Shown here: positions 1 to 45,353 of the stretch, piece after piece
How the letters are laid out: every line of letters starts with the position of its first letter
Position numbering within the stretch: the first letter of the stretch is position 1
Assembly: GCA_043811005.1 (NCBI GenBank)
Contig: JBDRNO010000218.1
Span: 6,925-70,924, forward strand
Direction: 5' to 3'
DNA length: 64,000 nucleotides
From: Bacteroidota bacterium
GTDB taxonomy: Bacteria; Bacteroidota; Bacteroidia; NORP154
Notes under the pieces: model-generated
Database searches by the model: none
The model's input: the letters and a program-made list of their open reading frames with translations, nothing else
What the model was told of the DNA's origin: nothing
Position numbers and translations under genes: made by a program

Positions 1-552
1 TAAATCTGCTGTTTTAATGGGTTTTTCAATTGGTGTTAATAAATCCTCTTCTTCTTTCTTTTTCTTTCTTTCATTTGCCTGCTTAATAAACTCAGTATTT
101 TCATCTTCAATAATTTTTTGAAGATCCCTGTCGAACATAATTATTTTCACATAATTATCTTCCAGATGTTTTATTCCTTTACCATAAACAGTATAATCCG
201 GATCAGTAATACCAACATAAACGGTTTTTATTCTTGCTTTTGAAGTCCGTTTGCAACAAGCTATTTTTGGAGGTGTTCTTTCAACACAAGGCTCAAGTGT
301 GGTAAACAAAATACAATCATCAAGTTTTTTGTTCCCAAGTTTTCTTTCAAGTAAGGTAAATTCCGCATGATCGCCATCTCTGAGTTCTCCTCTGTGAGCT
401 CTTTCAATTTTACCGTCCGGAAATAACAAAATTGTTCCAACCTTGGGCGGCACTTTACCATCTGGTCTTGGTTCATTCATGCTCTTATTCATCTCCTCAA
501 TTGCCAATTCCATGTAAGGCCTTGGATTAAATATTTCTTCTTTTTTTGCCAT
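1..552 (-). CDS. CDA-fold (RibD-like) zinc deaminase domain protein; 5' end complete, 3' end runs off the window
   Basis: Absent from the ORF track because there is no stop inside the window. ATG at 552, frame hand-translated and open to nt 1 (184 codons): MAKKEEIFNPRPYMELAIEEMNKS... Zinc-deaminase signature DGDHAEFTLLE ... TTLEPCVERTPPKIACC (H-A-E / P-C-x8-C-C, resembling the RibD TLEPC..TPPC motif). Starts 11 nt after the methyltransferase stop on the same strand. Confidence 0.6.
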   Translation of the reverse strand, partial: MAKKEEIFNPRPYMELAIEEMNKSMNEPRPDGKVPPKVGTILLFPDGKIERAHRGELRDGDHAEFTLLERKLGNKKLDDCILFTTLEPCVERTPPKIACCKRTSKARIKTVYVGITDPDYTVYGKGIKHLEDNYVKIIMFDRDLQKIIEDENTEFIKQANERKKKKEEEDLLTPIEKPIKTADL

Positions 553-563
553 AGTTCTTTATT

Positions 564-3500
564 TTATTCTTCCTCCCCATTCTCCAACTCTTTCCCCATC
601 CTGTATTTTATATCGTAATTGATAATAAAATCCAACTCCTCTGCCGTGAAACCGTAATGCTCGGCAAGGACGGTGTCTATTTCATCAATGATGGGTTTGG
701 ATAATCTTGGTTGAAACGATTGTATTTCAAGTATTCCTGCTCGCTTATCGTTTCGAATTTGAAAAATGGAATTCTCCACTAAATCTTTCAATAATTTGGC
801 TGAAAGAGATTCCATTATTTTAAGAATTGAATCGTCAATTTTATCTAATTCAACAGGGAACTTGAGAATTTCTCTTGAATTTACATTTCGGCAATCAGAA
901 AATGTAATGAAGAACCAAAAGAACAAATTACTATTTAAGACACATAATAAAGTATCTTTTTCATTTGCTGTTCCAACAGTTATTTCCTTTAATTCTGATG
1001 GTTCAATTTTATTTTTATGTTCATCGTAGATTACAGGTGGGTTTTCAAAGAACTGAATAAAATGCTGTAGTTTTCTTGTATATCTTACTTTATTGCTTGA
1101 TGACCTAACTATAACATTGGAAACCGTTAATTTCTTGTTTAATAAGGCTTTGAGAATTGATTTTTCAATATCAGAAGAAATTTTGGGATACCCACTAATA
1201 TTGAATAGATTATCCTTAACATCTTGAAATGAAAGTTTGCTAAATAAATTTTCACGCTCATCAGATAGCCACCTATAATATTTAGTGGTGAAATTAATTG
1301 AAGGGTCATTATTAGTACTGATAAAAATTGTTAACCTTTTATCTACACCGTCAAACAGCTTTGAAGGACGAACTCCAAAGTTTGAATAATAAAAACCTGT
1401 TTTACTTTTTGAGCAGACCTTGCGTAATGTGGAATATCCATCCGTTGAAACAATAGATATAGGAACAATCATTCCAATTCTTCCTTTAGAATTAAGCAAT
1501 GACAAAATTGCCCTTTCTATACACATTGCATATAAATCACCGCAAGGTACTGTTTCGTAGTTATTAAGTTTGCATTTCACATCTTTGAGTGAAACATAAG
1601 GCGGATTCCCAATCACTACATCAAACCCATCTTTGTCATGAATTATCTCATAAAACTCCGCAAACCAATGAAAAGGCTGGTGTGTTTCAATCCATTTTTC
1701 AAATTTCAAGCCTTCTGCTTGCTTATGTAGTAAAAGGTTTAATTCGTGATTCAGTTCTTTCAACCGTTTATTAAGGTCGTCTTTGGCAGTTTTAAAATCT
1801 TTGTAATCATCACCGGTGTTTAATTGTATTTCTTTGTATCGGGTGAATGCCCGTGCAACGATATCGCATTTTTCTTCAATTTCATTTTTAACAAGAGCAC
1901 CCATCATATCTTCAATCAGGCTTTTTTCCAATTCCTTTTCGGTTGCAAAACCAACAAGTGTATTTCCTGCCCTTATATTAAAATCAATATCCGGTAATGG
2001 TTCTAAACCTAAATTAGGTTTTCGGTAATCCACTTCAACTGTTGCCACTAATTTTAAAAATAAGCGGAGTTTGGCTATTTCAACAGCTTCATTCATTATG
2101 TCCACGCCATAAAGGTTTCGCAGTATGATGCTCTTGTATATGAAGTAGCTTAAATTTGGATGTTCGGGGCTTTTTACCTGTTCCAAAATTTCTTCAAAAA
2201 ACTTGTATTTTCCTTTAGCCGCTTCGGTAACAAAGTTTTCCATGCGCTGAATGCAACTTTCATAAAGCGGTTCTAAAATATTCATGGCTGCAAAAAGAAA
2301 TGCACCAGAACCACAGGTCGGGTCAATAATAGTAACGTTGTTGAGTGATTTGTAAAAATACTTCAGAAATTCATGGTCAGTTGTGCTTTCTACAACATCT
2401 TGTGCAAACTGGCGAATATTCAGGTTGTAGGTAATAAAATCATTGATGGTAGTTATTTCACCTTTTTCAATTTTGTTTTTTACTTCGGCATATCGGTTTC
2501 TGCGGTCAACTACTTCCCGCCATATTTCTGTCGGTAATGCAAATTTAGTTGGAGCAGCCTTGTTCCATTCTATACGTTTGCTAACATCTTTTATTCCAGT
2601 AGCTATTTTTGCGGGTAATTCTTCTTCAACTCCTTTTTTTACAGCATCGTAAATGTAAATGTCACCGCTTTGATTAGCAGATTGCCATATTTCACCATCG
2701 TTTAAAAATGCTTTTGGGTATTGGCGTTTTGTTTCATCAAACAAATAAGGTAGAATGCAATTTTTGCTGATGTAGTCAGTAATATCCTCCTTAGTGTAGT
2801 AAGCACCCATATTTGCCCTGTCGTTGATATACTTTTCAAAAATATATCCGATAACATCAGGGTTGATGTCCTTGCCTGTGGCTGTAATTCGTGTGTCGAG
2901 ATGCCATTCATACTGGTCGAAAAAATCAAAAATCCGTTCAAATGCTTTATCCTCAATGTCAATGGCGTTGTACATTTTCTCCAATTCGTGTTCGTCAAAC
3001 AAACCGCCATTGAGATAGGGAATTTTTCCGATTTCTATTTTAACTTCTTCCTTTTGATTAGTTTCATTTAAGCCCTGATGAAATAAAACTAAAAGGAAGT
3101 CCCGGTAAAATGAATAGAATTTATTTTTTCCTTTTTTAACCTGACAGGCATTTAATTTATCCCGCAGATAATTCTTGTTGTCATCCAAAAATCCCTTTTT
3201 TTGTATAAAATAGCAGAACATTAAGCGGTTAAGCATTAATGAAGCATACCATTCCTTGTTTACTTTTTGGTCAATTCCTTTAATGAAATTCAGAAATGAA
3301 GTATGCTCTTTTTTAAATTTATCATAAAACTGCTTTGTAACTTTTTCAGCGTTTGCATGGAAATTATCAGCCATTCGTTTTGTAACATCAACAATAGTAA
3401 TTTTTTCTTCTTCGTCCATTTCAAAGAAAATGCCTGATGCCCGCTGGTATAATAATTCAGGGTCTTGTGAAATGTGGTAGCGTGTTTCGGTAACTTTGGT

Positions 3501-3851
3501 TGGTTTGCCGGATTGTCTTACGACCAATTGCCAAATTTGCTCTTGGTTTTTAGCGTCACAGAAAATAATTAAATGCTCCTGAAACAGTTTTGTAACTTTA
3601 GTTTCAATTTTTTTACGGGTATTATAATCGGGAATAAGTCCTTTGTCGGTCGGATTGCCTGCCCGTTCCGCAGGCGGGCAAAGCAGGATTTTAAAACCAC
3701 TTTTTTCGGCAACTGCTTGTAGTGAAAAAGTAAAATTATCAACAGAAATGGGTTGTTTGGTTTTATCGTTATTCCAGCCCATTTCATTAAAAAGCATACG
3801 AAAATTGAACTGTTTTATGTAGCCGGAAAAATCATGTTTACTTATCGCCAT
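564..3851 (-). CDS. Large gamma-class N6-adenine DNA methyltransferase with C-terminal target-recognition region (Eco57I / type IIG / BREX PglX-like architecture)
   Basis: 1095 aa. SAM motif I IIDPTCGSGAFLF precedes catalytic motif IV VIGNPPYV (gamma order). Helical spacer with YLNGGLF and NPDVIGYIFEKY..GAYYT motifs typical of PglX/MmeI-type enzymes. N-terminal LFNEMGW domain. No recognisable PD-(D/E)xK nuclease motif seen. Confidence 0.85.
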   Translation of the reverse strand: MAISKHDFSGYIKQFNFRMLFNEMGWNNDKTKQPISVDNFTFSLQAVAEKSGFKILLCPPAERAGNPTDKGLIPDYNTRKKIETKVTKLFQEHLIIFCDAKNQEQIWQLVVRQSGKPTKVTETRYHISQDPELLYQRASGIFFEMDEEEKITIVDVTKRMADNFHANAEKVTKQFYDKFKKEHTSFLNFIKGIDQKVNKEWYASLMLNRLMFCYFIQKKGFLDDNKNYLRDKLNACQVKKGKNKFYSFYRDFLLVLFHQGLNETNQKEEVKIEIGKIPYLNGGLFDEHELEKMYNAIDIEDKAFERIFDFFDQYEWHLDTRITATGKDINPDVIGYIFEKYINDRANMGAYYTKEDITDYISKNCILPYLFDETKRQYPKAFLNDGEIWQSANQSGDIYIYDAVKKGVEEELPAKIATGIKDVSKRIEWNKAAPTKFALPTEIWREVVDRRNRYAEVKNKIEKGEITTINDFITYNLNIRQFAQDVVESTTDHEFLKYFYKSLNNVTIIDPTCGSGAFLFAAMNILEPLYESCIQRMENFVTEAAKGKYKFFEEILEQVKSPEHPNLSYFIYKSIILRNLYGVDIMNEAVEIAKLRLFLKLVATVEVDYRKPNLGLEPLPDIDFNIRAGNTLVGFATEKELEKSLIEDMMGALVKNEIEEKCDIVARAFTRYKEIQLNTGDDYKDFKTAKDDLNKRLKELNHELNLLLHKQAEGLKFEKWIETHQPFHWFAEFYEIIHDKDGFDVVIGNPPYVSLKDVKCKLNNYETVPCGDLYAMCIERAILSLLNSKGRIGMIVPISIVSTDGYSTLRKVCSKSKTGFYYSNFGVRPSKLFDGVDKRLTIFISTNNDPSINFTTKYYRWLSDERENLFSKLSFQDVKDNLFNISGYPKISSDIEKSILKALLNKKLTVSNVIVRSSSNKVRYTRKLQHFIQFFENPPVIYDEHKNKIEPSELKEITVGTANEKDTLLCVLNSNLFFWFFITFSDCRNVNSREILKFPVELDKIDDSILKIMESLSAKLLKDLVENSIFQIRNDKRAGILEIQSFQPRLSKPIIDEIDTVLAEHYGFTAEELDFIINYDIKYRMGKELENGEEE

Positions 3852-3854
3852 ATT

Positions 3855-4679
3855 CTATTTCAGTTTTGTTATTTGCCGATTAGCCATAAGCGATTTCATT
3901 TGGGTAATTGCTATTTGGTTCAATTGCTTCAATCGTTCAGGTTGGGATAAGCCTTGATTTATCAGTACTGCATTGATGCTTTCCATATTAGAAAGCACCA
4001 CCAATTGTTCAATAGTTGCTTCATCCCTGATGTTACCTTGTTTCTCAGGATTGGCATCCCGCCACTGCTTTGCTGTCGAACCGAATAAAGCTACATTTAG
4101 CATATCTGCTTCATTGGAATATACATAGTTTATCTGGTTTTTACTCAACTCTTTTGGAATAAGATTCTCTTTGATGGCATCGGTATGGATATGATAATTT
4201 ATTTTAGCAAGGGTTCGTTGCAAATTCCATTCAAGTTTTAGCCGGTCGTTTTCATCTTCCTTAAGTCGTTGGAATTCTTTGATAAAATAAAATTTAAATT
4301 CAGCACTTATCCATGTGGCAAATTCAAAAGCAATATCACGATGTGCAAAGGTTCCTCCATATCTTCCTGATTTAGATGTAATTCCAATTGCATTGGTGGT
4401 TTCTATCCATTTTTGCGGGGTAAGTGTGAAACTATTGGAGCCAGATTCATTTTTAAAAGCATCGAATTCGATGCTTTTAAAATTTGGATTATTCAATTGC
4501 TCCCATAATCCACAAAACTCTATAGCACTACGGGTACGAATCCAATTTTGAATAATGTAGTTCGTACGATCAGCATCTTTGTATCTTGCCATATCGGTCA
4601 GTGAAATGTAATCTGCTGACTTATCGGCAAACAATGCTATTTCCCGGCCTTTTACAATGATTGTCTTGTTTTTTGCCAT
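3855..4679 (-). CDS. KilA-N domain protein
   Basis: MAKNKTIIVKGREIALF..DYISLTDMARYK...NWIRTRSAIEFCGLWEQLNNPNF...GRYGGTFAHRDIAFEFATWIS matches the Bacteroidota KilA-N family often embedded in R-M loci. Start placed at the MAKNK ATG (4679). The track ORF extends to 4715 but would overlap the helicase 3' end. Confidence 0.75.
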   Translation of the reverse strand: MAKNKTIIVKGREIALFADKSADYISLTDMARYKDADRTNYIIQNWIRTRSAIEFCGLWEQLNNPNFKSIEFDAFKNESGSNSFTLTPQKWIETTNAIGITSKSGRYGGTFAHRDIAFEFATWISAEFKFYFIKEFQRLKEDENDRLKLEWNLQRTLAKINYHIHTDAIKENLIPKELSKNQINYVYSNEADMLNVALFGSTAKQWRDANPEKQGNIRDEATIEQLVVLSNMESINAVLINQGLSQPERLKQLNQIAITQMKSLMANRQITKLK

Positions 4680-4687
4680 GCCATGTA

Positions 4688-7600
4688 CTATTTGTTTATT
4701 AATCCCATTGAACAAATTATTTGAGGTTCTTTGTTGGGCATTTCATCCTGATTTACAATGCAAAGCTTATCTTCTTCACGCAAGGAAACGACAAGGTTAA
4801 CAAGATCTTCGTCAGAAATACCTGCTTTAAGCTGACGGTTCAATGTTTCCCTTGCGAATTCTTTAAATGGGTATTTATAAATATCATCAACGGCTTTCTT
4901 TAATGCATCGTTCACAAATATGGTATTTTCATATTCCTTACAATACCTGTCAAGACGCATGTAAACCCTGTATTTCGCACCGGTCTTTTTACCAAGTGAG
5001 CTACCGGTAATTTTCTCATCGACCCGGATATATTCAATACCTTTCTTTACAAGTTCATGATGTTTTAAGATTCTATACAGTGGTTCTACATCGGAGTTAC
5101 AAGCCGCTGCTTTTAGAATTGTAAGCTGTGATTGTGTAATAATATTTCCCTTGGTATTTACCCATGCAAGTACATCATTTTCATCATAAGTTCGGGTATA
5201 AACGATCACACCTTCTTTTTCAGCCGCCAGATTATTTTGTTTTGTAGCATAAATGACATTGGGTAAATTGGGTATTGTTTTTATAAATTCAGGTGTTTCA
5301 TCGGTTGCATTTTTCCATATTTGGAAAGCAAAAGAAGCTAAATCAACTTCGCTATCCCCATCTTCTTCGTCCAAAATACCAGATTTTTCGTTATAGAGAT
5401 CTTCAATATTAATTGGGTCGCCATCAAAAAAAACTTCATCGGATCCAACAACTTCAGCATTTTGACGTATGCGATTTGTAAGCCTGTGGCGCAGATTAAT
5501 TATTTGCTCAATTCCATCTTCCGGCAAAAACGAATAGCATATTATTTGTTCTGCCTTTTGTCCAATACGATCAACACGTCCTGCTCGTTGTATAAGCCTT
5601 ATTATTGCCCAAGGCAAATCATAATTCAAAATTATATGGGCATCCTGCAAATTCTGCCCTTCACTCAGAACATCTGTGGAAACTAAAACCCTGATGTCAT
5701 TTTTTGTTTCAGGTATTTTGTTGCTTACCGGACTAAAACGGTACGCCAATGCAGTTGGGTTTTCGCTATTTCCGGTAACGTGTTCAAGTTGTTCAAGTTT
5801 TCGGATTTTTAAATGCTCTGATAAATAATAAGCAGTATCGGCATACTGAGTAAATATCAGCACTTTTTCGTTTTTGTGTTTGTTAGATAACAGTTTGTGC
5901 AAAGCATTCAGTTTTCTATCTTCATTCACATTCCAATCGTTGCCTACTTTTAATATTTTTATTATATCAGAACAATCAGTTGACAATTGTTTGAGCAAAA
6001 CCGGAGCGAAAAATTCACTTCTTATCCAATCAAATTGATGTTTATACTTGCTGCTACTATACAATTCATAAACCTTTGATGCTTTTTTCAAATAAACATT
6101 TTCATTAAGTATAAAATTGATGGTATTTTCATCTTCACCATTATTATCAGTATCATTATCCTCCAGAAAATCATCAAGGTTTTGAGAAATGTTTTTGCCA
6201 ATAGGAACAGGTAAATTGTTTTGAATAGCATAGAAAAAAACATAGTTCCGCAAAATATGCCTGCTTATTGAAATAAGAAAAGAAAAGCCACTGCTTTCAA
6301 GTCTTTTAAAAAGATTTGTCCTGCAAAATCCCATTAATCGTTTTCCTGCACGTGATAAATTTGCTATGATTACTTCTTCCTCTTTAGTTGGTTTAATGGA
6401 AGGCTTTTGTAGTATATAATTTGCTAAACCGTAACGAGGCAAATCAAGTCCATTAATAATATCTACAACACTTTTGGAATATAGTTTTGCGTATTGGTCT
6501 TTTGGATTATCGGGGTTAAAGTCAAATTCAACTTTTTTAGGAATTCTATCAGGGAAATAAGACCGTGTTCCGTCTGAAAAAGTCAAATACTTTCTGTTTT
6601 TATCAGGGTCTAATTCTGCATAGTTTTCTTTAATAAAACTTCTTGTTCTGCGAACAAGATAAAGCCGCATTAATTCACGCCAATCATCTGCATAATGACT
6701 TTTTTCAAAAGCTTTAATACTGCGAATAAAAGTTTCTGTATGTTGTGCACCAAACTGTACTTGTCCGCCTATATTGTTTATATAATTTTCCGGACTAATT
6801 CCCAAATCTTTATCATCCGAAATAAAAAGACGAAGTTGATTTGATAAGTCCAAATAGGATTTGTTATAGGGAGTTGCAGAAAGTAAAATAACCTTACTGT
6901 CATTTTCTTCAAGATATGCTTTTATTGAACGATAACGACTACCCTGATCGTTTCGTAAGTTGTGGCTTTCATCTATTATTACAAGTTTATATCTGCGTAA
7001 ATCCGGCAGTTTTCTTTGTACTTCGCCTATTGAAATTACATTTGCCTTTAAATCATATCTGTTGATGTAGCCTGACCACATCGTTTTTAGATTTGGCGGG
7101 CAAATTACAAGCGTTGAATAGAAAAAATCCTCTTCAAATATTTTTGCTAAAGCACATGCTGTAATTGTCTTTCCTAACCCGACAACATCACCAATAAAAA
7201 CACCTTCGCGGCTGTTTAATTTTTTTGCTGCGATTAAAACGGCTGCTTGTTGAAAAGGCAGAAGTTCTTTTTTAAAGACTTTTGGAATTTTAAATTCATT
7301 CAATCCGGCTCTTGCTTCTTGTGAAAGATGATAAGCCATTTTCAGGTAAATATGATAAGGTGAAACCAAACGGTCTGCCGCCCAGCTATTATCAATGATA
7401 TCAATTAGTTCTTCAGTAATATCAATACACCAGCGATCTTTCCAACGATCATCAAACCATTTAGCTAATTTTGTTGCAGCATCCTGATCCATTACGTCAA
7501 CATTCAATTCTCCTTGTTTTGCAGGGCCGGCCAATGTCAGGTTACTGCTCCCCAAAAAACCAACTACCGGCACACGTTTATCTTCGCTGTAAGCTAAATA

Positions 7601-8047
7601 AAGCTTGGCATGCAAAGGATAGCGTAAATGAAGTTTAACGACTACCTTTTTATCTTTCATCTGTTGGCTTAACTTGCGTAAAGCCCCTTCATCTGCATCT
7701 GATGGCGTTCCAATTGTAAGTTGGTCTTTAAATTCCTGAGCTAATCGTTTTTTTAGTTTTACAGCTTCGTTTTGGTCGAGTATATAACCTTCATCCGCTT
7801 TGAAATAATCACGAAGTATGTCAACCGGTAATTTTTGCATACCAACTAATAGTCTGCATATTCTATGAAAATCATCCTTTTCTTCGGTTACTATTGATCC
7901 TGATAATGAATCAATTTTATCTGCAATTTCTTTCCAACCACGAAGATTAAAATAGCCTACACAAAAATCTGTTCTTTGAGAAACTTCTAAAGTTTCATTT
8001 AACCCTTGTGTAAGGTGGTTTTCAATATTGTCGTAAATCTTTGGCAT
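4688..8047 (-). CDS. PLD-family (HKD) nuclease domain fused to SNF2/SF2 helicase
   Basis: 1119 aa. N-terminal single HKD motif LHAKLYLAY..VVGFLGSSNLT. Helicase motifs GDVVGLGKT (I), LVIIDESHNLRN (II, DExH), LLSATPYNKS (III), STDVLSEGQNLQD (V), QRAGRVDRIGQ (VI). Confidence 0.85.
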   Translation of the reverse strand: MPKIYDNIENHLTQGLNETLEVSQRTDFCVGYFNLRGWKEIADKIDSLSGSIVTEEKDDFHRICRLLVGMQKLPVDILRDYFKADEGYILDQNEAVKLKKRLAQEFKDQLTIGTPSDADEGALRKLSQQMKDKKVVVKLHLRYPLHAKLYLAYSEDKRVPVVGFLGSSNLTLAGPAKQGELNVDVMDQDAATKLAKWFDDRWKDRWCIDITEELIDIIDNSWAADRLVSPYHIYLKMAYHLSQEARAGLNEFKIPKVFKKELLPFQQAAVLIAAKKLNSREGVFIGDVVGLGKTITACALAKIFEEDFFYSTLVICPPNLKTMWSGYINRYDLKANVISIGEVQRKLPDLRRYKLVIIDESHNLRNDQGSRYRSIKAYLEENDSKVILLSATPYNKSYLDLSNQLRLFISDDKDLGISPENYINNIGGQVQFGAQHTETFIRSIKAFEKSHYADDWRELMRLYLVRRTRSFIKENYAELDPDKNRKYLTFSDGTRSYFPDRIPKKVEFDFNPDNPKDQYAKLYSKSVVDIINGLDLPRYGLANYILQKPSIKPTKEEEVIIANLSRAGKRLMGFCRTNLFKRLESSGFSFLISISRHILRNYVFFYAIQNNLPVPIGKNISQNLDDFLEDNDTDNNGEDENTINFILNENVYLKKASKVYELYSSSKYKHQFDWIRSEFFAPVLLKQLSTDCSDIIKILKVGNDWNVNEDRKLNALHKLLSNKHKNEKVLIFTQYADTAYYLSEHLKIRKLEQLEHVTGNSENPTALAYRFSPVSNKIPETKNDIRVLVSTDVLSEGQNLQDAHIILNYDLPWAIIRLIQRAGRVDRIGQKAEQIICYSFLPEDGIEQIINLRHRLTNRIRQNAEVVGSDEVFFDGDPINIEDLYNEKSGILDEEDGDSEVDLASFAFQIWKNATDETPEFIKTIPNLPNVIYATKQNNLAAEKEGVIVYTRTYDENDVLAWVNTKGNIITQSQLTILKAAACNSDVEPLYRILKHHELVKKGIEYIRVDEKITGSSLGKKTGAKYRVYMRLDRYCKEYENTIFVNDALKKAVDDIYKYPFKEFARETLNRQLKAGISDEDLVNLVVSLREEDKLCIVNQDEMPNKEPQIICSMGLINK

Positions 8048-8207
8048 ATAATTAATTTAAATTCAAATGCGCCTTTTTCAAGATCAAGAATAGTTTTTCA
8101 GGTAATCCTATATGCATCATACTTTGCCCCGACATTCGACAAGGCAACTATATAGTATGATAGAGTTAAACTCAATGCACCGTCCACTCATCTTCGATAT
8201 CAAATGA

Positions 8208-8468
8208 TTACACAGATTTACCCATATCATATAATACATCCGGGCAAAAATCCAATCCGTTATTCCAATATATTGTTTCCCATTCGGGCTGTAACTTTAC
8301 ACTGTTAAAATAATCAGGATCCAATAGCGCTTTATATTTGCTGTTTTTTGTTTTACTTCTGGACTTTATTTTTTCTTCCAGATCAAGGATCTTTATCTCA
8401 CCCGTATTAAACCTTAAAGTAAGTTTATAAGGTTCTTTATTGATAATTTCTTTTATGAGATATAACAT
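8208..8468 (-). CDS. DUF2442-family small protein
   Basis: 86 aa; YKLTLRFNTGEIKILDLE ... IYWNNGLDFCPDVLY pattern typical of DUF2442. 7 nt downstream of the DUF4160 gene. Confidence 0.6.
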   Translation of the reverse strand: MLYLIKEIINKEPYKLTLRFNTGEIKILDLEEKIKSRSKTKNSKYKALLDPDYFNSVKLQPEWETIYWNNGLDFCPDVLYDMGKSV

Positions 8469-8475
8469 TTATGAT

Positions 8476-8739
8476 TTATTTTATTGGTTCAATTTTATTA
8501 ATTTCAGGATTATCTTTTTGGCTTTCTTCCCAATTTTCTATTAATTCATCTCTATGTAATTCAGTCCATGCCTGGATCAATCTCAACTGTTTTTTCGGAA
8601 AACTTCCTTCCATCAAGTCACCGGATTCTATTTCAAACCGTGCATTATACTCTCCATACCTTGCGTGAAAATGTGGTGGTGGATGATCATCTGCATACAT
8701 GGTTATAATTATTCCGAAAAATCTGCTTATCTCTGGCAT
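8476..8739 (-). CDS. DUF4160-family small protein
   Basis: 87 aa; MPEISRFFGIIITMYADDHPPPHFHARYGEYNA is the characteristic DUF4160 N-terminus. Confidence 0.65.
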   Translation of the reverse strand: MPEISRFFGIIITMYADDHPPPHFHARYGEYNARFEIESGDLMEGSFPKKQLRLIQAWTELHRDELIENWEESQKDNPEINKIEPIK

Positions 8740-8784
8740 ACCTTATTATTTAAAATTATCCTAATATAAAAAATTATAGGCATA

Positions 8785-9651
8785 TTACAATTCCGTTAAT
8801 TTCCCATAAGTCTCAGGTCTTCTGTCCCTGAAAAACTGCCATGTTGAGCGGACTTCATCTATCATATCGAGATCAAATTCCGCCACCAGCAACTCATCCT
8901 TATCTTCAGAAGCTTCAGCAATGATCTTACCTTTTGGGTCTACAAAATATGAAGTTCCATAGAACTTACCCAAATTCCACGGTTTCTCCTCCCCTACCCT
9001 GTTGATACATCCCAAAAAGTAACCGTTGGCAACGGCATGGGCGGGTTGCTCTAACTTCCATAAATATTGGGATAATCCTGCAACCGTAGCAGACGGATTA
9101 TATACTATTTCCGCCCCGTTCAGCCCGAGCACTCGCGCTCCATCGGGGAAGTGCCTGTCATAGCAAATATAAACACCGACTTTTGCATACTTGGTATCAA
9201 ACACAGGATAGCCCAGGTTCCCGGGTTTAAAAAAGAACTTTTCCCAGAACCCCGTTGTGTGAGGTATATGGTTTTTCCTGTACTTACCCAAATATTCGCC
9301 TCCGGCATCTATCACGGCAGCGGTATTGTACAAAAAACCGGGTTTTTCCTTTTCATAAACAGGTACAACGATGACCATATCATATTTTCTTGCATATTCC
9401 TGCAATTTTTCCGTTGTTGGGCCGGGAACAGACTCGGCAGATTCATACCACTTCTTATCCTGTCCGGGACAAAAATATGGCGTATTAAAAATTTCCTGCA
9501 GGCAAAGGATCTGAACACCCTGTTTACCTGCATCTTCAATATAAGGAATATGTTTTTGGTACATCGCATCCATTATCTCCTGGATTGTACCCTCTCCCTC
9601 GGTCATAGGGAGTGACATTTGAATCAAACCTGATTTGATTTTTCTTGGCAT
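8785..9651 (-). CDS. Beta-ureidopropionase-like carbon-nitrogen hydrolase (nitrilase superfamily)
   Basis: 288 aa. Glu-Lys-Cys triad contexts LCLQEIF, YRKNHIP, VGVYICYDRHFPD. Segment PYFC..WYESAESVPGPTTEKLQEYARKYDMVIVVPVYEKE resembles beta-alanine synthases. Adjacent to dihydropyrimidinase. Confidence 0.75.
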   Translation of the reverse strand: MPRKIKSGLIQMSLPMTEGEGTIQEIMDAMYQKHIPYIEDAGKQGVQILCLQEIFNTPYFCPGQDKKWYESAESVPGPTTEKLQEYARKYDMVIVVPVYEKEKPGFLYNTAAVIDAGGEYLGKYRKNHIPHTTGFWEKFFFKPGNLGYPVFDTKYAKVGVYICYDRHFPDGARVLGLNGAEIVYNPSATVAGLSQYLWKLEQPAHAVANGYFLGCINRVGEEKPWNLGKFYGTSYFVDPKGKIIAEASEDKDELLVAEFDLDMIDEVRSTWQFFRDRRPETYGKLTEL

Positions 9652-9756
9652 GGTTATTAGTTTAGAGTTTAATTTGTTAAAAAGGTTTTGAAGCTATTGT
9701 TTTTTACCACTCACTAAGAACACTTAGTTTCGCTAAGTTTTTATTTAAGTTATTCA

Positions 9757-11139
9757 TTATATGATCAGGGAAGTTTTTCCTCTTTTAATAAATTGCCCAC
9801 ATCCTTTGCCGATCTTAACTTCTCCATCATCTATAGCAACCTTTCCCCTTAACAAAACTGTCTTGCATTTGCCTGTCACTTCCCACCCTTCATAGCCAGA
9901 GTAATCACAGTTCATGTGGTGTGTATCAACAGAAAGGGTGTGCTTTTCTTCAGGATCAAATATAATTAAATCAGCATCAGAGCCAATAGCTATACTTCCT
10001 TTTTTGGGGGATAAACCAAATATTTTAGCTGCGTTTGTTGATGTAACCTCCACAAATTTGTTCAAACTGATCCTGCCCTTTTCAACTCCTTCCGAATATA
10101 TAAGTTCCATCCTGTGTTCAATACCCGGCATACCATTAGGTATCTTTGAAAAGTCATCCTTACCCATTTTCTTCTGCTCAAAAGTAAATGGTGCATGGTC
10201 GGTACCTATAACCTGTACAAGCCCCTGGTTCAATCCAGCCCATAATGTTTCCCGGTCTTTCTTTTCCCGCAGTGGGGGGCTCATCACCCATTTGGCACCA
10301 TCAAAATCTTTCTCATAAAGGGAAGCATCGAGTAGGAGATACTGAGGGCAAGTTTCCACAAATACCTTTTGATTCCTCAATGTTGCATTGCGCACTGCAT
10401 TCAGCGCACCTTCGCAGGTAAGGTGAACGATATATGCAGATACTCCGGTGTGGTTAGCCATGTCAATAAAGCGCCTGGATGCTTCGGCTTCGGTTATCTC
10501 GGGCTGGGACAGGTAATGGTATAACGGAGACAGTTTCCCTTCGGCTCTATGTTTTGCAACAAGATTATCTATTATATCCCCGTTAGTTGCATGAACCTGA
10601 ACAAGACCACCGAGCTCCTTCATCTGCTTCATCAGGGCTACCATCTGCCCGTCATCTATCATTAAAGCGCCCTTATATGCCATAAAGGTTTTAAAGGATG
10701 TTATTCCTTCCTTCTCAATAATATCTACCAACTCCATGCTTATCTTTTCGTTATAATCAGTAATGGCAATGTGGAATGAATAATCACCAAAGGTGTTTCC
10801 TTCTGACCTCCCACGCCATTCTTCAAGGGCTGAGGAAAGCGACTTTCCCTGCGTTTGTATTACATAGTCAATTACAGTCGTTGTTCCACCATGCAGGGCA
10901 GCACGGGTGCCGGTCTCATAGTTATCGCTTGTGAATGTTCCCATGAAAGGCATGTCAAGGTGAACGTGAGGGTCAATACCGCCCGGAAATACTAATTTGT
11001 CTGAGGCATCAATGGTTTGGTCTGCTTCAATATTCAAACCCTTTCCAATAGTAGAAATTGTTTCTCCTTCAATGAAGATATCGGCAATATAATCATCAGA
11101 TGCTGTGATGATCCTGCCGTTTTTGATCAGTATACTCAT
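9757..11139 (-). CDS. Dihydropyrimidinase / D-hydantoinase (cyclic amidohydrolase)
   Basis: 460 aa. Metal-binding GGIDPHVHLDMPF, carboxylated-Lys context SFKTFMAYKG, VHATNGD, GTDHAP motifs. Confidence 0.85.
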   Translation of the reverse strand: MSILIKNGRIITASDDYIADIFIEGETISTIGKGLNIEADQTIDASDKLVFPGGIDPHVHLDMPFMGTFTSDNYETGTRAALHGGTTTVIDYVIQTQGKSLSSALEEWRGRSEGNTFGDYSFHIAITDYNEKISMELVDIIEKEGITSFKTFMAYKGALMIDDGQMVALMKQMKELGGLVQVHATNGDIIDNLVAKHRAEGKLSPLYHYLSQPEITEAEASRRFIDMANHTGVSAYIVHLTCEGALNAVRNATLRNQKVFVETCPQYLLLDASLYEKDFDGAKWVMSPPLREKKDRETLWAGLNQGLVQVIGTDHAPFTFEQKKMGKDDFSKIPNGMPGIEHRMELIYSEGVEKGRISLNKFVEVTSTNAAKIFGLSPKKGSIAIGSDADLIIFDPEEKHTLSVDTHHMNCDYSGYEGWEVTGKCKTVLLRGKVAIDDGEVKIGKGCGQFIKRGKTSLII

Positions 11140-11227: not shown

Positions 11228-13234
11228 ATGAATAAAGTAAGTTATTTATATCCACACAAGCTGGAGCAATTAAGAAAGTTCTCCTCCCGGCTTAACAGAA
11301 TGATGAATAATGGTTCTTTTTACCGTTTGTCATCACACAGACGTTATGTGCTCATTCAAAGGATCAAAAGGTTATATCGTCAATTGCAGAACTATATTCC
11401 TGAATTTAGATTAAAACACATACTTGGATCTGCAGCTCTTTTGCTTATAATGAATACAAAAATATCCAGCGCTCAAACATTTGGGCCTCCTCAAATAAAC
11501 CCTTTTGGATTAACCAACACCAATAATTCATTCCCAACTTTTGTTGATATTGATAGCGATGGCGACTATGATGCTTTTGTAGGTGAGTACTATGGCTTGA
11601 TAAAATACTTTAAGAATAATGGTAACAATACTAATCCATCATTTGCCGCACCTCAAACCAATCCATTTGGATTAGCTAGTGCTTTTTATCTTGCTGCTCC
11701 ATCTTTTGCTGATATTGACGATGATGGAGACCTTGATGCTTTTATTGGAGAAGGATATGGTGCAATAAGATATTTTGAGAATACAGGTAATAATACTGCC
11801 CCGGCTTTCGCTTCACCTCAAGTCAATCCTTTCGGATTGACAAATACCGACTACTATGCTTTCCCAACACATACAGACATTGACAGTGATGGAGACTACG
11901 ATATTTTTGTCGGGGAATACTACGGTGCTATTAAATATTTTGAAAACACGGGTTCCAGTACCTCACCAGCATTTGCATCACAACAGACAAATCCTTTTGG
12001 ATTAACAAATGTCGCAGGATATATTTCAACGCCATCTTTCGTTGATATTGACTGTGACGGTGACTTTGATGCTTTCATAGGCGGAGAGGATTATGGCAGC
12101 ATTACTTATTTTGAAAATACCGGATCAAACACTGCTCCTTCATTTGCTCCAGCTACATCCAATCCCTTTGGTATAAAAAGCACTGGTGGTTTTGCTGCCC
12201 CAAGTTTCGCAGATATTGACGGTGACGGGGATTTTGACCTTTTTATTGGGAATTACAACGGTTCCATTATTTATTATGAGAACACAACAACACCTGATTG
12301 TCCCTCACCTATCAGTCTGTCAGCAGACAATATCTCCTTAAACACAGCAGATCTATCATGGGCATCTACTAATCCCGGCACTGCCTATACACTTGAATAT
12401 GGACCTTCAGGATTTACACCCGGATCAGGAATCACGTTAGCTGGAACATCTGCTACCGGTGTTAATTCACAAAGCATATCCGGCTTGAATGCCACAACTC
12501 TATATGAATTCTACATTCAGGAAGACTGCGGTTCAGGCAATTACAGTGATAATGTTGGTCCGCTTTTATTCGCAACATCACCTGCAAATGACAATTGTAT
12601 TGGTGCAATACCTGTTAATTGCGGAGATATATTCTATGGATCAACCGTTAGTGCCACTACCGATACTCCAGATAGCTGTGGCACAACCAATGGTACAGGT
12701 GGCGGGGTATGGTTTTCTTTTACGGGAACAGGCGATACTATTAATGCTTCCCTATGCAATAGCAATTACGATACGAAAATAAGGGTGTATACCGGTACAT
12801 GCGGTTCATTAGTATGTATAACAGGCATTGACGATACCTGCGGGCTTCAATCAGAAGTTGAATGGCTCTCCCTTATGGATACTACATATTACATTCTCGT
12901 ACATGGATATGGCGATGAAGAAGGATTCTTTACCTTAAATATGTGTAATGCCATTAGTTCTATTAATGAAAGTATCCCGGAATTAAATTTTAATATTTAT
13001 CCCAACCCTGTTAGTCAAAACTTTAATATTGAAATAAGAGGAAAAAGGAATTTGAATAGTTCAACGTTAGAAATATATAATACCATCGGTCAGATAATGC
13101 TTAGGGAAAAACTCAGGGGTTGGTCTAACAAATATCATAAGGAAATTAGCACGGATGGTTTTACCAAGGGGATTTACTTCGTAAGATTAATATCAGAAGA
13201 TTATATTGTTGTCCGCAAGTTGATAATTCAGTAA
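11228..13234 (+). CDS. Secreted FG-GAP/VCBS-repeat protein with T9SS type A C-terminal sorting domain
   Basis: 668 aa. Six ~57-aa repeats NPFGL..P.F.DID.DGD.D.F.GE.YG.I.YFEN.G; FN3-like segment; C-terminal IYPNPVSQNFNIEI...GIYFVRL...KLIIQ sorting domain. Signal-like hydrophobic stretch only at aa ~65-82, so the true start is uncertain. Confidence 0.8.
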   Translation: MNKVSYLYPHKLEQLRKFSSRLNRMMNNGSFYRLSSHRRYVLIQRIKRLYRQLQNYIPEFRLKHILGSAALLLIMNTKISSAQTFGPPQINPFGLTNTNNSFPTFVDIDSDGDYDAFVGEYYGLIKYFKNNGNNTNPSFAAPQTNPFGLASAFYLAAPSFADIDDDGDLDAFIGEGYGAIRYFENTGNNTAPAFASPQVNPFGLTNTDYYAFPTHTDIDSDGDYDIFVGEYYGAIKYFENTGSSTSPAFASQQTNPFGLTNVAGYISTPSFVDIDCDGDFDAFIGGEDYGSITYFENTGSNTAPSFAPATSNPFGIKSTGGFAAPSFADIDGDGDFDLFIGNYNGSIIYYENTTTPDCPSPISLSADNISLNTADLSWASTNPGTAYTLEYGPSGFTPGSGITLAGTSATGVNSQSISGLNATTLYEFYIQEDCGSGNYSDNVGPLLFATSPANDNCIGAIPVNCGDIFYGSTVSATTDTPDSCGTTNGTGGGVWFSFTGTGDTINASLCNSNYDTKIRVYTGTCGSLVCITGIDDTCGLQSEVEWLSLMDTTYYILVHGYGDEEGFFTLNMCNAISSINESIPELNFNIYPNPVSQNFNIEIRGKRNLNSSTLEIYNTIGQIMLREKLRGWSNKYHKEISTDGFTKGIYFVRLISEDYIVVRKLIIQ

Positions 13235-43531: not shown

Positions 43532-44835
43532 TCAAAAGCATGAACTTTTTTCTTTTTCCTTATTTTTAATTTCCCAAAAATACCAATCCCTCAATCCCCA
43601 TAATCCTTTAATCCCCCAATCCCCCAAAACATCATCAACACTTTTTGCATCTTCAAAAAAAGAGAGAATTTGCTGCAATACTTCATCAACGGTTGCATCG
43701 GGGCAGGATGCTCCGCTGGTGAGGATAATATCAACGTGTTGCTTTTTAGGCAGAAAATCCTTTGTTTCCTTCATCTTATCGTTGCGATGATCATAATGCC
43801 GTATCAGATTTCCCGAAAGGATCTCTTTAGCAGATGAAATATAGTATGTTTTTCCGGTGTACCGTGATTCGCATAATTCAACAAGATGTGATGTGTTAGA
43901 ACTGTTGTATCCCCCAACCACAATTGCCATATCTACTTGCAGCTTTAATAAACCGCGGGTGGCTTCCTGGCTATCATTGGTTGCATAGCAGAGGGTATCC
44001 CTTGTGTCGGCAAAATGGCTTTTCATATCCTTCATGCCATATTTCCCGATCATAGTGCTTTTTAGAAAGGTTGCTATCTCTTTAGTCTCAGTAGCGAGCA
44101 TTGTTGTTTGATTAACCACACCTATCCTTTTAAAGTCCTTTGATGCATCAAACCCATCTGAGAACCTACCTTAAAAAGGGTGTGAAATTCATTAACATCT
44201 GTTTTACCTGAGATTATTCCTGCTAATTCCTTTGCTTCATCCAAATTTTTTATAATTAATGACGGAGCATTTATAGTGCTGTGCGAAAAGGTTGCCTTGG
44301 TTTCTTCATGGTTGTGCTTGCCGTGAATTATTATGGTATAATTGTCTTTCCCGAGCTTTTCAGACCTGTTCCACACCTTTTCTACAAAAGGACAGGTTGT
44401 GTCGTACTTACGCGTGTTTATTCCAATATCTTTGAGCTTTTTTTCTGTTTCCGGCGTTGTTCCGAAGGCGGGAATTATCACTATATCACCGGGTTTAAGC
44501 TCATCCCATTCAACAAACTGATTGCCTTCTGTATCCATAATAAATTTGATCCCCCTTTGTTGCAGGTCACTGTTAACATCGGGATTGTGTATCATCTGGC
44601 TTAGGAGGAATATTCTTTTGCCTGGATTCTCTTCAAGCGCCTGGTATGATATCTCAATTGCATTCTCTACACCGAAGCAGAAACCGAAGTGACGCGCTAT
44701 AAAAAACCTCACCACACCAAAATCCATTACAGTAGGAGAAAAATCCTTTTTCCTCGGATCCTGCTGCCTTCGCATTTCCTTTATTCTTGAAATTACAGAA
44801 CTTCTATAAAATACAGGGATTTTGAATGCTTTCAT
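43532..44835 (-). pseudogene. ispH: Long-form 4-hydroxy-3-methylbut-2-enyl diphosphate reductase, split by a 1-nt frameshift
   Basis: ORF 44122..44835 (..FGFCFGVENAI.., TTCPFV, HGKHNHEE) and ORF 43532..44119 (VVNQTTM.., DTLCYAT, VVGGYNSSNTSHL) are the two halves. Extending the second frame upstream gives GRFSDGFDASKDFKRIGVVNQTTM up to a TAA at 44171-73. The frames meet at the run cctacc-tt-aaaaa-ggg (44165-44180). Confidence 0.8.
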
Positions 44836-44840
44836 ATTAA

Positions 44841-44938
44841 CTGGTTGCTGGATACTAGATGCTGGATATTAGATATTTGTTATTGTCATTGTTAATTGTC
44901 TACTGTCAACTGCCTGCTTTCAACTGGATTCTGGTTAA
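44841..44938. repeat. 14 heptamers in one continuous phase whose word drifts CTGGTTG > CTGGATA > TTAGATA > TTGTCAT > TGTCAAC > TGCCTGC > TGGTTAA
   Basis: Hand-sliced from 44841. Lies immediately upstream of the ispH start (44835, minus strand). Confidence 0.8.
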
Positions 44939-45110
44939 GTTGAAATATCAAACAGGACAAAGTTAATTATAAATTCGTCATATTATTTCAAACCGGTTGG
45001 TGTAAATCTCATAGGAAGTTCTTTTATGTTGAATAAGACTTTTTACGCTTCAATTTTCATTAGCTGGACAAACTGTTTCGGTTTACGTTGGGAATAATCC
45101 AGGTTAATAT

Positions 45111-45166
45111 CATCCATCTCCCATCAACCATCTCACATCTCACATCAAATATATTCCATCGAATAT
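45111..45166. repeat. 8 heptamers, most ending in CAT
   Basis: catccat ctcccat caaccat ctcacat ctcacat caaatat attccat cgaatat. Confidence 0.75.
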
Positions 45167-45353
45167 TCCATCATAAATTTTTCCTTTCCACAATAAAATT
45201 ATATCTTTACACCCGCTTTTTGAAAAAGCATGAGACAAAAAACTGTTTTCGCCCATTTCCCTGTCCTTTATGAAACAGGGAATATGCAGTTAATGTTAAA
45301 CCCCTTCTGTAACTGGCGATATTGCAGGATACAAAATTTACCATGTAATATAT

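Follow-up and report, generated by a model that had tools for sequence, protein, structure and literature searches.

A predicted split, ATP-dependent restriction-modification-like system and its passenger genes in a Bacteroidota genome

The locus and the closest described systems

BREX type 3, DISARM class 1 and ARMADA (ArmA-D) are all built on a Swi2/Snf2 helicase and a PglX-like methylase. The effector of MANTIS (formerly Gao_RL or Gao_29, also called Type-2 BREX-related (BR) systems) has an N-terminal PLD domain with a single HKD motif, followed by a superfamily 2 (SF2) helicase. Type ISP enzymes such as LlaGI and LlaBIII combine a nuclease, an SF2 translocase, a gamma-class N6-adenine methylase and a C-terminal target recognition domain (TRD) in one chain, and they recognize an asymmetric site (PMC3874165). 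We analyzed a locus which shares features with all of these systems. It lies at positions 1 to 8,047 of a stretch of 64,000 nucleotides (nt), called the window throughout this text, from a Bacteroidota bacterium (assembly GCA_043811005.1, contig JBDRNO010000218.1, positions 6,925 to 70,924). The locus is likely to be a split, ATP-dependent restriction-modification (R-M)-like system related to DISARM, ARMADA and MANTIS. By analogy, its core would be, in functional terms, a two-chain, PLD-armed counterpart of Type ISP enzymes. Its gene content, conservation, motif integrity, TRD mosaicism and variable cargo are described below as we observed them.

Relatives of the methylase were frequent. There were more than 8000 of them in the protein collection, the best 120 being 61-79% identical, besides the window's own entry at 100%. 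A scan of one genome per species detected a methylase relative in at least 558 genomes (558 of 600 candidate stretches were confirmed), with 80 loci among the matches listed. We compared 77 distinct related loci with flanks of up to 10 kb, clustering all of their open reading frames (ORFs); 71 of the loci had enough upstream sequence. A helicase orthologue was located directly upstream of the methylase, on the same strand, in all 71. The gap between the two genes was 40 nt or less in 52 of these loci, and an insert separated them in 17. Only three gene families occurred in more than 20% of the 77 loci, namely the methylase (77), the helicase (73, the rest being truncated) and a protein of approximately 155 amino acids (aa) (55), which we call DprA-like; the fourth most common family was found in only 15. 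The loci returned came from Bacteroidota, Chlorobiota, Acidobacteriota, Desulfobacterota, Firmicutes, Spirochaetota, Lentisphaerota, Kiritimatiellia, Fibrobacterota and KSB1, and the core pair was also listed for Verrucomicrobiota and Cyanobacteria. The N-terminal module of the methylase formed at least 660 clusters at 50% identity (E<=1e-30). We did not detect a helicase-methylase fusion in the 150 best 50%-identity representatives of this module, the longest of which had 1343 aa. These comparisons support the helicase and the methylase as a genuine, widespread and conserved restriction-like module. A restriction-like operon had been proposed in a preliminary description of this DNA.

In the window, the ORF list with its translations contained four consecutive minus-strand genes with intergenic gaps of 8, 3 and 11 nt. 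The coordinates and spacing of the preliminary description were thus reproduced; the motifs it named were all read in the translations, and Pfam matched domains in each of the four genes. The features are as follows.

4688..8047, minus strand: helicase-nuclease (core gene 1), 1119 aa; predicted restriction and motor subunit
7442..7690, minus strand: HKD (PLD-family) nuclease domain within the helicase, aa 120-202; Pfam PLDc_2
3855..4679, minus strand: KilA-N protein, 274 aa from the ATG; cargo slot 1, between helicase and methylase
564..3851, minus strand: gamma-class N6-adenine DNA methyltransferase of MmeI/PglX type (core gene 2), 1095 aa
3342..3851, minus strand: N-terminal domain of the methylase, aa 1-170; AlphaFold2 (AF2) model, no demonstrable nuclease
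717..1451, minus strand: variable TRD-like region of the methylase, aa 801-1045; low column conservation
1..552, minus strand: 5' part of the deaminase gene, an open frame of 184 codons that leaves the window; cargo slot 2, 3' of the methylase
8048..8207, minus strand: intergenic stretch of 160 nt located 5' of the helicase; presumed operon promoter region, predicted

MANTIS and the Type-2 BR systems were compared using two sources (bioRxiv 10.64898/2026.09.23.753747, PMC12839542). MtsD of MANTIS is a dimeric SF2 helicase-nuclease with an N-terminal PLD that acts downstream of a hemimethylating methylase (bioRxiv 10.64898/2026.09.23.753747). Besides the single-HKD effector, the locus would share with MANTIS an N6-adenine methylase that sets specificity and, if the assignment of slr6050 discussed below holds, one-strand methylation at short asymmetric sites. 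However, neither the DUF499/AAA+ ATPase (MtsA) nor the DUF3780 protein (MtsB) was seen in the window or in the 77 related loci, and a DprA-like gene occurs instead. With its own TRD, the methylase belongs to the MmeI/PglX (Eco57I) type and not to the MANTIS/COG1743 type, and the helicase scored 124 bits, against a cut-off of 1100, on the NCBIfam model of the MANTIS-type PLD anti-phage helicase (NF042964).

With DISARM class 1 and ARMADA the locus has in common a Swi2/Snf2 helicase (DrmD/BrxHII/RapA-like), a large PglX-like N6-adenine methylase and the involvement of a PLD nuclease. Unlike in those systems, a YprA/DUF1998 helicase (DrmA/DrmB, ArmC) was absent from the window and was not recurrent in the 77 loci. 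In addition, the Snf2 helicase carries the PLD domain as an N-terminal fusion, whereas DISARM has a separate DrmC, and the DrmD model NF038317 gave 130.6 bits against 610, in the Helicase_C region only. Type ISP enzymes differ in that they are single chains, while the parts are here on two polypeptides; their nuclease is an Mrr-like PD-(D/E)xK and not a PLD/HKD nuclease, and the motor of the locus is of the Swi2/Snf2 type.

The methylases of the Type IIG/IIL MmeI family and PglX/BrxX of BREX have the same domain order as the methylase of the window, with a modular, swappable TRD. In contrast to the Type IIG/IIL enzymes, the N-terminal domain has no conserved PD-ExK residues and a helicase-nuclease is a constant neighbour. 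In contrast to BREX, PglZ and BrxC/PglY were neither in the window nor recurrent in the related loci, BrxA, BrxB and BrxL were absent, and the methylase scored 80.9 bits against 500 on the NCBIfam PglX model NF033452. The likeness to Type III R-M is only functional: gamma-class motif order, a C-terminal TRD and an N-terminal PLD stand here against a beta-class Mod with an internal TRD and a Res with C-terminal PD-ExK.

None of the DrmA/B, PglZ, BrxC, DUF499 and YprA families recurred within 10 kb in the 77 loci. We also compared 62 large same-strand neighbours with PADLOC. Their 25 most frequent matches were ATPase and helicase models (GajA, GajB, AriA, PtuA), and no partner of the DrmA/B, PglZ, BrxC or DUF499 type was among these 25. 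The locus had been described as fitting no canonical defence gene set, and this holds for DISARM, BREX, MANTIS and Type ISP: the curated NCBIfam cut-offs were missed by far, and no DrmA/B, PglZ, BrxC, DUF499 or YprA family was recurrent. The analogies drawn at that time, to a DrmC-DrmD fusion with a DrmMI-like methylase or to a split Type ISP enzyme, are a fair description of the architecture. Whether the combination was already catalogued had been left to a search with tools such as PADLOC, and the outcome was divided: there was no DISARM, BREX or MANTIS call, but the methylase family already carries the label Type IIG, probably misleadingly. Current tools would call the locus 'RM type IIG' plus a stray candidate, because the PADLOC model PDLC03628 matched and the curated NCBIfam cut-offs were missed. 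In the literature outside REBASE itself and subscription-only journals, we found no paper on a system of a PLD-Snf2 helicase and an Eco57I/MmeI-type methylase, with or without a DprA-like protein. It yielded only neighbouring systems (MANTIS, the BR types, DISARM, ARMADA and Hma) and a paper on the Synechocystis methylome. The overall logic of the core is that of known methylation-based defences, and the core is widespread and probably mis-annotated.

The helicase-nuclease, the methylase and the DprA-like protein

Pfam identified three parts of the helicase: PLDc_2 (aa 120-202; 27.5 bits against a cut-off of 27), SNF2-rel_dom/ResIII and Helicase_C. Together with direct reading, this confirmed that one N-terminal HKD motif (H146, K148 ... 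GSSN169) is followed by SNF2/SF2 motifs, including Walker A (GLGK293T), D359ESH and QRAGRVDRIGQ. In 69 species-level orthologues the residues of HKD, Walker A, DESH, motif III and motif VI were conserved in at least 95%, and the same was observed for the HKD stretch LHAKLYL...GSSNLT...QGELN. Motifs I and IV of the methylase were likewise at least 95% conserved (69-71 species-level orthologues). Because of this conservation, both proteins are expected to be catalytically competent. Some helicase orthologues carry the annotation NgoFVII-family restriction endonuclease. The top PADLOC match was 'HKD+Snf2' C3a139 (165 bits, aa 119-969), and the models of DrmD, BrxHI/BrxHII, DpdE and HmaA were matched only partially. 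Since there is one HKD per chain, the active site would need a helicase dimer; it may form across the dimer, as in Nuc, BfiI, SauUSI and MtsD (bioRxiv 10.64898/2026.09.23.753747). The AF2 model of the helicase was poor (pLDDT, the predicted local distance difference test, 58; predicted template modelling score (pTM) 0.41; 45 input sequences, at least 73% identical), and a Foldseek search with this low-confidence model gave generic Swi2/Snf2 remodellers, Hef and RapA on top. The helicase was by far the more uniform of the two proteins; its nearest relative was 93% identical, versus 77% for the methylase.

The methylase matched the Pfam families Eco57I, MmeI_Mtase and, weakly, MmeI_hel, the last of which agrees with the PglX/MmeI-type helical spacer noted earlier. 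The motif D510PTCGSGAF lies upstream of N749PPY, which is the gamma-class order. The protein is composed of an N-terminal domain, the helical spacer, the methyltransferase domain, a variable TRD and a conserved C-terminal tail, and its nearest solved structures were PglX/BrxX, weakly matched. Mean column conservation was 0.33-0.51 in the TRD region (aa 801-1045) and 0.6-0.95 elsewhere; the last 50 residues were again highly conserved. In four relatives (P0010, P0011, P0013 and P0018) the TRD was only about 30% identical, compared with 78-89% in residues 1-800 and 84-94% in the tail. A TRD of such low identity within otherwise 78-94% identical proteins indicates that the specificity domain is mosaic and is swapped between relatives. 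The reading of the gene as a gamma-class methylase with a C-terminal TRD-like region was therefore correct. We also noted one relative (P0019, L001:10001-13333) that was 72-81% identical at aa 171-800 and 66% identical in the TRD region, but only 48% in the N-terminal 170 residues. The N-terminal domain (window 3342-3851) thus appears to be exchanged between lineages as well.

It is unlikely, in our view, that the methylase is a self-contained Type IIG/IIL enzyme which carries its own nuclease at the N-terminus and has the helicase as a separate or auxiliary defence gene beside it. Such an enzyme would agree with the fit of the REBASE-derived PADLOC model REase_MTase_IIG (PDLC03628), which covers the methylase at full length (1061 bits, aa 6-1090), with the matches to MmeI_Mtase and MmeI_hel, with an alpha-beta-beta-beta-alpha-beta-like core in the N-terminal domain and with the weak HSDR_N similarity noted for slr6050 by Hagemann et al. 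(PMC6105098). The AF2 model of that domain had a mean pLDDT of 77.5 and the topology aa-bbb-a-bbb-a (a, alpha-helix; b, beta-strand). However, a Foldseek search of the domain against PDB gave nothing at E<0.01 and no nuclease match, Pfam matched neither the MmeI N-terminal nuclease family nor any other nuclease family in the methylase, and the candidate catalytic residues varied across 71 orthologues (D38 in 41, E49 in 53, D99 in 57 and K101 in 18). SAS-6 coiled coils appeared as the top Foldseek matches of the domain and were rejected as an artefact of the long helix at aa 153-191. Because a structural match was lacking and the candidate acidic and lysine residues were not conserved, there is no evidence that the methylase has a nuclease of its own, which agrees with the earlier failure to see a nuclease motif in it. 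Moreover, a helicase-nuclease with an intact PLD adjoined the methylase in every locus with upstream sequence, often at a gap of 40 nt or less. We therefore keep to the split, two-protein reading.

The third recurrent gene encodes the DprA-like protein. By clustering and tblastn rescues, it was found in 57 of the 66 loci whose downstream sequence reached at least 2 kb; its strand was always that of the operon, and its median distance past the methylase was 1.4 kb. It is known from the related loci only, the left edge of the window falling within the deaminase gene; it escaped the preliminary description because the window ends too early. In nine loci the methylase stop codon and the start of this gene overlap (4 nt in eight of them, 11 nt in the ninth), and because of this overlap these loci are compact three-gene operons with no cargo in slot 2. 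The protein matched Pfam DNA_processg_A with E=4.9e-6 and 26.3 bits, below the cut-off of 29.6, PADLOC PsyrA with E=3e-11 and TIGR00732 with E=5e-4. A profile search of the family against PDB sequences gave DprA (3uqz) at E=0.58 only, over a congruent alignment range. We regard it as a putative distant Rossmann (SLOG) domain of the DprA/Smf type. PsyrTA, which consists of a RecQ-like helicase toxin and a DprA-like antitoxin, likewise pairs an SF2 helicase with a small DprA-like protein. The two differ in the helicase (Snf2 with PLD here, RecQ in PsyrTA), in the length of the DprA-like protein (about 155 aa versus 398 profile positions) and in the presence of a methylase here. The similarity may hint at what the DprA-like protein does and does not suggest membership. 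In one Spirochaetales locus (L056:5210-5740) the DprA-like gene was located directly upstream of the helicase and not downstream of the methylase.

A search of plasmids with tblastn identified full-length orthologues on pSYSX of Synechocystis sp. PCC 6803 and on pPRO1 of Pelobacter propionicus. Besides these two (the latter as strain DSM 2379), the cultured carriers include Pedobacter changchengzhani E01020, Nibrella viscosa JCM 17925, Gracilimonas amylolytica LA399 and Caproiciproducens galactitolivorans. The pSYSX locus (L172, 43696-51129) encodes a 'helicase-related protein' (43696-47151), then a VapBC pair, then a methylase of 1100 aa. The helicase is 48% identical to that of the window and its HKD is intact. 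The methylase, slr6050 (M.Ssp6803IV), is 46.6% identical and was tentatively assigned, by elimination and through REBASE, to the motif GA(m6A)GGC (Hagemann et al., PMC6105098). Because this motif is asymmetric, only one strand of the site can be methylated. The slr6050 knockout never segregated and the gene was called essential (PMC6105098); the paper does not mention the PLD-Snf2 helicase adjoining it. The adjacent helicase may explain the failed segregation, and a methylase gene that cannot be deleted next to an intact nuclease would fit restriction addiction, that is, an active restriction partner.

A reading outside defence seems even less probable than a Type IIG enzyme. The methylase, an Snf2 remodeller and a DprA-like mediator would then form an epigenetic or DNA-transaction module in regulation, DNA uptake or repair. 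In its favour, DprA mediates recombination during natural transformation, Snf2 proteins of the RapA type work on RNA polymerase, and the behaviour of slr6050 as an essential gene could reflect a regulatory role. However, the PLD motif is intact and conserved, and close relatives have exchanged the TRD in the manner of R-M specificity subunits. The distribution of the family is patchy and includes plasmids, its G+C content in the window is below that of the flank, and the interior of the operon is full of anti-phage systems, as described next.

Genes in the two slots of the operon

The gene between the helicase and the methylase in the window matches Pfam KilA-N (68 bits) and PHROG 2657, 'transcriptional regulator'. 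The ORF list starts it at a TTG at 4715, and the ATG at 4679 fits the 274-aa orthologues and position 1 of the PADLOC single-gene candidate PDC-S22. The protein matches PDC-S22 at full length (451.9 bits, aa 1-273 against 1-273 of 281); the defence function of this candidate is putative. We found KilA-N in slot 1 of 7 of the 71 loci, that is, in 7 of the 17 with an insert. At this frequency, and with unrelated systems in the slots of other loci, the KilA-N protein was not supported as a component of the system, contrary to what had been supposed.

Slot 2, between the methylase and the DprA-like gene, carried one to six same-strand genes in 41 of 53 loci. We compared 120 cargo genes with Pfam and PADLOC. 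Most often we detected domains of the COG2865 type (HATPase_c_4 11, Schlafen/AlbA_2 9), followed by KilA-N (7), PDDEXK_3 (6), YhcG/DUF1016 (5; PDC-S02) and RhuM (3; PDC-S05). Rarer contents were Fic (3), DUF4062 (3), CDA deaminase (3) and GmrSD (2). AlbA_2-HATPase_c_4 proteins and VapC/VapBC were also among the slot contents, VapBC being the slot 1 cargo on Synechocystis pSYSX. A complete Gabija system (GajA and GajB) was located between the methylase and the DprA-like gene in three loci (L019, L025 and L065), and DarT with DarG in two, with full-length PADLOC matches in L024. Both embedded systems were always co-directional with the host operon.

The fourth gene of the window was correctly described as a CDA-fold deaminase. 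It matches dCMP_cyt_deam_1 (40 bits against a cut-off of 25) and Inv-AAD in Pfam and nothing in PADLOC, and it contains the motifs H62AE64 ... PC89 ... C99. These H, E, C and C residues were invariant in 14 diverse members of the family, with RibD-like PC-x9-C spacing; the nearest solved structures were the deaminase domains of RibD and TadA, weakly matched. Full-length orthologues have 497-504 aa, and the part in the window is the N-terminal third of a fusion of approximately 500 aa, in which the deaminase is followed by HATPase_c_4 and a winged helix-turn-helix (wHTH). The C-terminal two thirds match the 'RecG-like' COG2865 scaffold, whose usual Schlafen/AlbA_2 head is, as judged from these matches, replaced by the deaminase.

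The deaminase was downstream of the methylase in approximately 6 of 66 related loci (about 9%); outside the window, it starts 21-138 nt past the methylase stop in six loci. In L038, L059, L093, L101 and L102 a DprA-like gene comes after the deaminase-HATPase_c_4 gene within about 0.5 kb, and the same order is predicted for the contig of the window once some 950 further nt of the deaminase gene have passed. We also surveyed the family in 80 metagenomic loci. A core-type methylase was near the deaminase in only 8 of the 39 loci that extended at least 4.5 kb upstream, and a DprA-like gene was downstream of it in 8 of 57. Its other neighbours belonged mostly to Type I R-M (HSDR_N 9, ResIII 9, HsdM/S 3), RhuM (5) and GmrSD (4). 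Lone deaminase-HATPase_c_4 genes were observed among unrelated or housekeeping genes in Dinghuibacter silviterrae (L087) and in a Chryseolinea metagenome-assembled genome. With the family mostly beside Type I R-M genes or alone, the deaminase did not hold up as a component of the system, and the idea of a partner dedicated to the methylase, acting for example in a second base modification, was rejected.

A similar arrangement is known from Type I R-M loci with accessory genes (PDC-S, COG2865/AlbA_2-HATPase_c_4, RhuM, YhcG, KilA-N), in which the same families are located between the core genes, and hsdR/M/S are the most frequent neighbours of the deaminase-HATPase_c_4 gene itself. The difference is that here the host operon is the trio of PLD-Snf2 helicase, methylase and DprA-like gene, and that whole systems (Gabija, DarTG) are embedded in it too. 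Judging from these comparisons, we take the KilA-N and deaminase genes to be interchangeable passengers in the two slots of the operon and not parts of the core machine. Each is probably an independent gene of second-line defence or of regulation which hitch-hikes and is co-transcribed. We infer that recombination in the exchange of cargo would be anchored in the conserved 3' end of the methylase gene and in the DprA-like gene, which is conserved too.

It is thus very unlikely that all four genes form one obligate system, with KilA-N as a DNA-binding sensor and the deaminase as an effector or modifier. The tight same-strand spacing of 8, 3 and 11 nt would suit such a system, as would the deaminase close behind the methylase in six other loci and KilA-N in the same slot in seven. 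However, neither extra gene was present in more than approximately 10% of the related loci, and the two occurred together in none of the other loci sampled, so that the four-gene order (KilA-N slot 7 of 71, deaminase about 6 of 66) did not stand as one conserved system. The slots hold unrelated defence systems, most deaminase-HATPase_c_4 genes lie outside core loci, and the nine loci with an overlapping DprA-like start have no cargo in slot 2 at all. The four-gene system appears largely refuted by these comparative data, and the two-protein core with passengers is retained.

Two further observations concern genes of these families. In L090 and L091 a deaminase-HATPase_c_4 gene was near an AbiJ_NTD4 fragment. 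In L088 (2402-6346) we found a distant helicase/methylase pair (approximately 25-33% identity) with a methylase of 1314 aa fused to a Schlafen/AlbA_2 domain. This domain, elsewhere usually a separate cargo, is there part of a core protein, and a deaminase fusion gene is located approximately 2.6 kb further downstream.

Proposed mechanism and genomic surroundings

We propose that a short asymmetric site is recognized by the methylase via its exchangeable C-terminal TRD, and that methylation of one adenine would serve as the self mark. On unmethylated DNA the site-bound methylase would recruit or license the helicase-nuclease dimer. The dimer would use ATP to translocate and would cut with a single PLD active site formed across it. 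Cutting would probably require that sites in a defined orientation communicate, as they do in Type III and Type ISP systems and, in graded form, in MANTIS. Because methylation of one strand leaves one daughter duplex unmarked after replication, self-tolerance probably needs such communication. The DprA-like protein could be a regulator, a loader of the helicase-nuclease or a DNA- or nucleotide-binding adaptor. The physical interaction of the two core proteins, the cleavage, its dependence on site orientation and the roles of the DprA-like protein and of the cargo are predicted from the comparisons above.

Several points weigh against the proposal of a split R-M-like system. Restriction of phages or plasmids and DNA cleavage by this exact family are predicted only. 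The N-terminal domain of the methylase, with its modelled alpha-beta-beta-beta-alpha-beta-like topology, could be a degenerate or atypical nuclease, and the PADLOC/REBASE model of the methylase is labelled as a bifunctional Type IIG enzyme. SauUSI was outside the top 50 Foldseek matches of the poor helicase model (pLDDT 58); because of the quality of the model and the failure to recover SauUSI, an MtsD/SauUSI-like dimer is an analogy and not a result. Some orthologous loci, for example those on pSYSX and pPRO1, lack the DprA-like gene. The motif of slr6050 was assigned only by elimination, and its 'essential' phenotype could have other causes. Finally, the four genes are probably co-transcribed, as judged from their spacing alone.

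That the locus is an ordinary DISARM, BREX, ARMADA or MANTIS system with its remaining genes past the left edge of the window is the least probable explanation and hardly credible, as the partial PADLOC/NCBIfam matches to DrmD, DrmMI, PglX, BrxHII and the MANTIS-type PLD helicase and the end of the window inside the fourth gene stand against curated cut-offs that were clearly missed (DrmD 131 against 610 bits, PglX 81 against 500, PLD anti-phage helicase 124 against 1100), against only the helicase, methylase and DprA-like families exceeding 20% of the 77 loci, and against the lack of partner families among the 25 most frequent PADLOC matches of the 62 neighbours.

A broader proposal, which we make tentatively and with distinctly less confidence than that of a split R-M-like system, is that the trio of PLD-Snf2 helicase, MmeI-like methylase with TRD and DprA-like protein is a distinct, unnamed class of ATP-dependent R-M mislabelled as 'Type IIG', that its operon carries exchangeable second-line immune genes in two fixed slots flanked by conserved core sequence, and that the deaminase-HATPase_c_4-wHTH protein is a new deaminase-based anti-phage effector. 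If this is true, a family found in several hundred bacterial species or more has been misfiled as single-protein Type IIG enzymes. The methylase would supply modification and specificity as one half of a two-protein, ATP-driven system whose Snf2 motor bears the nuclease. A minimal and genetically simple relative would join the continuum of DISARM, ARMADA, BREX-3 and MANTIS, and it would be a cleaner model for how a PglX-type methylase licenses a translocating nuclease. The 'essential' plasmid methylase slr6050 of Synechocystis PCC 6803 would also be explained. The fixed cargo slots would offer a practical route to mine new defence genes, with the deaminase-HATPase_c_4 protein as a candidate effector. 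Should the reading prove wrong, what remains is a defence island of standard components whose limits are correctly drawn.

The intergenic stretch at 8048..8207 is the sole sizeable non-coding gap flanking the four genes. A scan of the minus strand, not tuned to Bacteroidota, gave no terminator-like sites inside the intergenic gaps, and the counts of sigma-70 promoters and terminators equalled the shuffled background, the scan model being unsuited to Bacteroidota promoters. Scans of the window for tRNA and Rfam families gave no matches. The G+C content was 0.31-0.37 over the defence genes (window 1-8800) and 0.40-0.44 in the adjoining metabolic/housekeeping block (8800-11000), which encodes a CN-hydrolase, an amidohydrolase and a protein with a type IX secretion system (T9SS) tail. 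Because the G+C content of the defence genes is below that of the neighbouring block, horizontal acquisition is suggested.

Directly 5' of the helicase, on the minus strand (window 8208-8739), we observed a pair of genes encoding DUF2442 (86 aa) and DUF4160 (87 aa; PHROG 14333) proteins. The pair stands between the defence island and the housekeeping genes and may be toxin-antitoxin-like. Further along, on the plus strand (window 11228-13234), an FG-GAP/fn3 protein carries a Por_Secre_tail (T9SS sorting) domain, which fits a Bacteroidota host.

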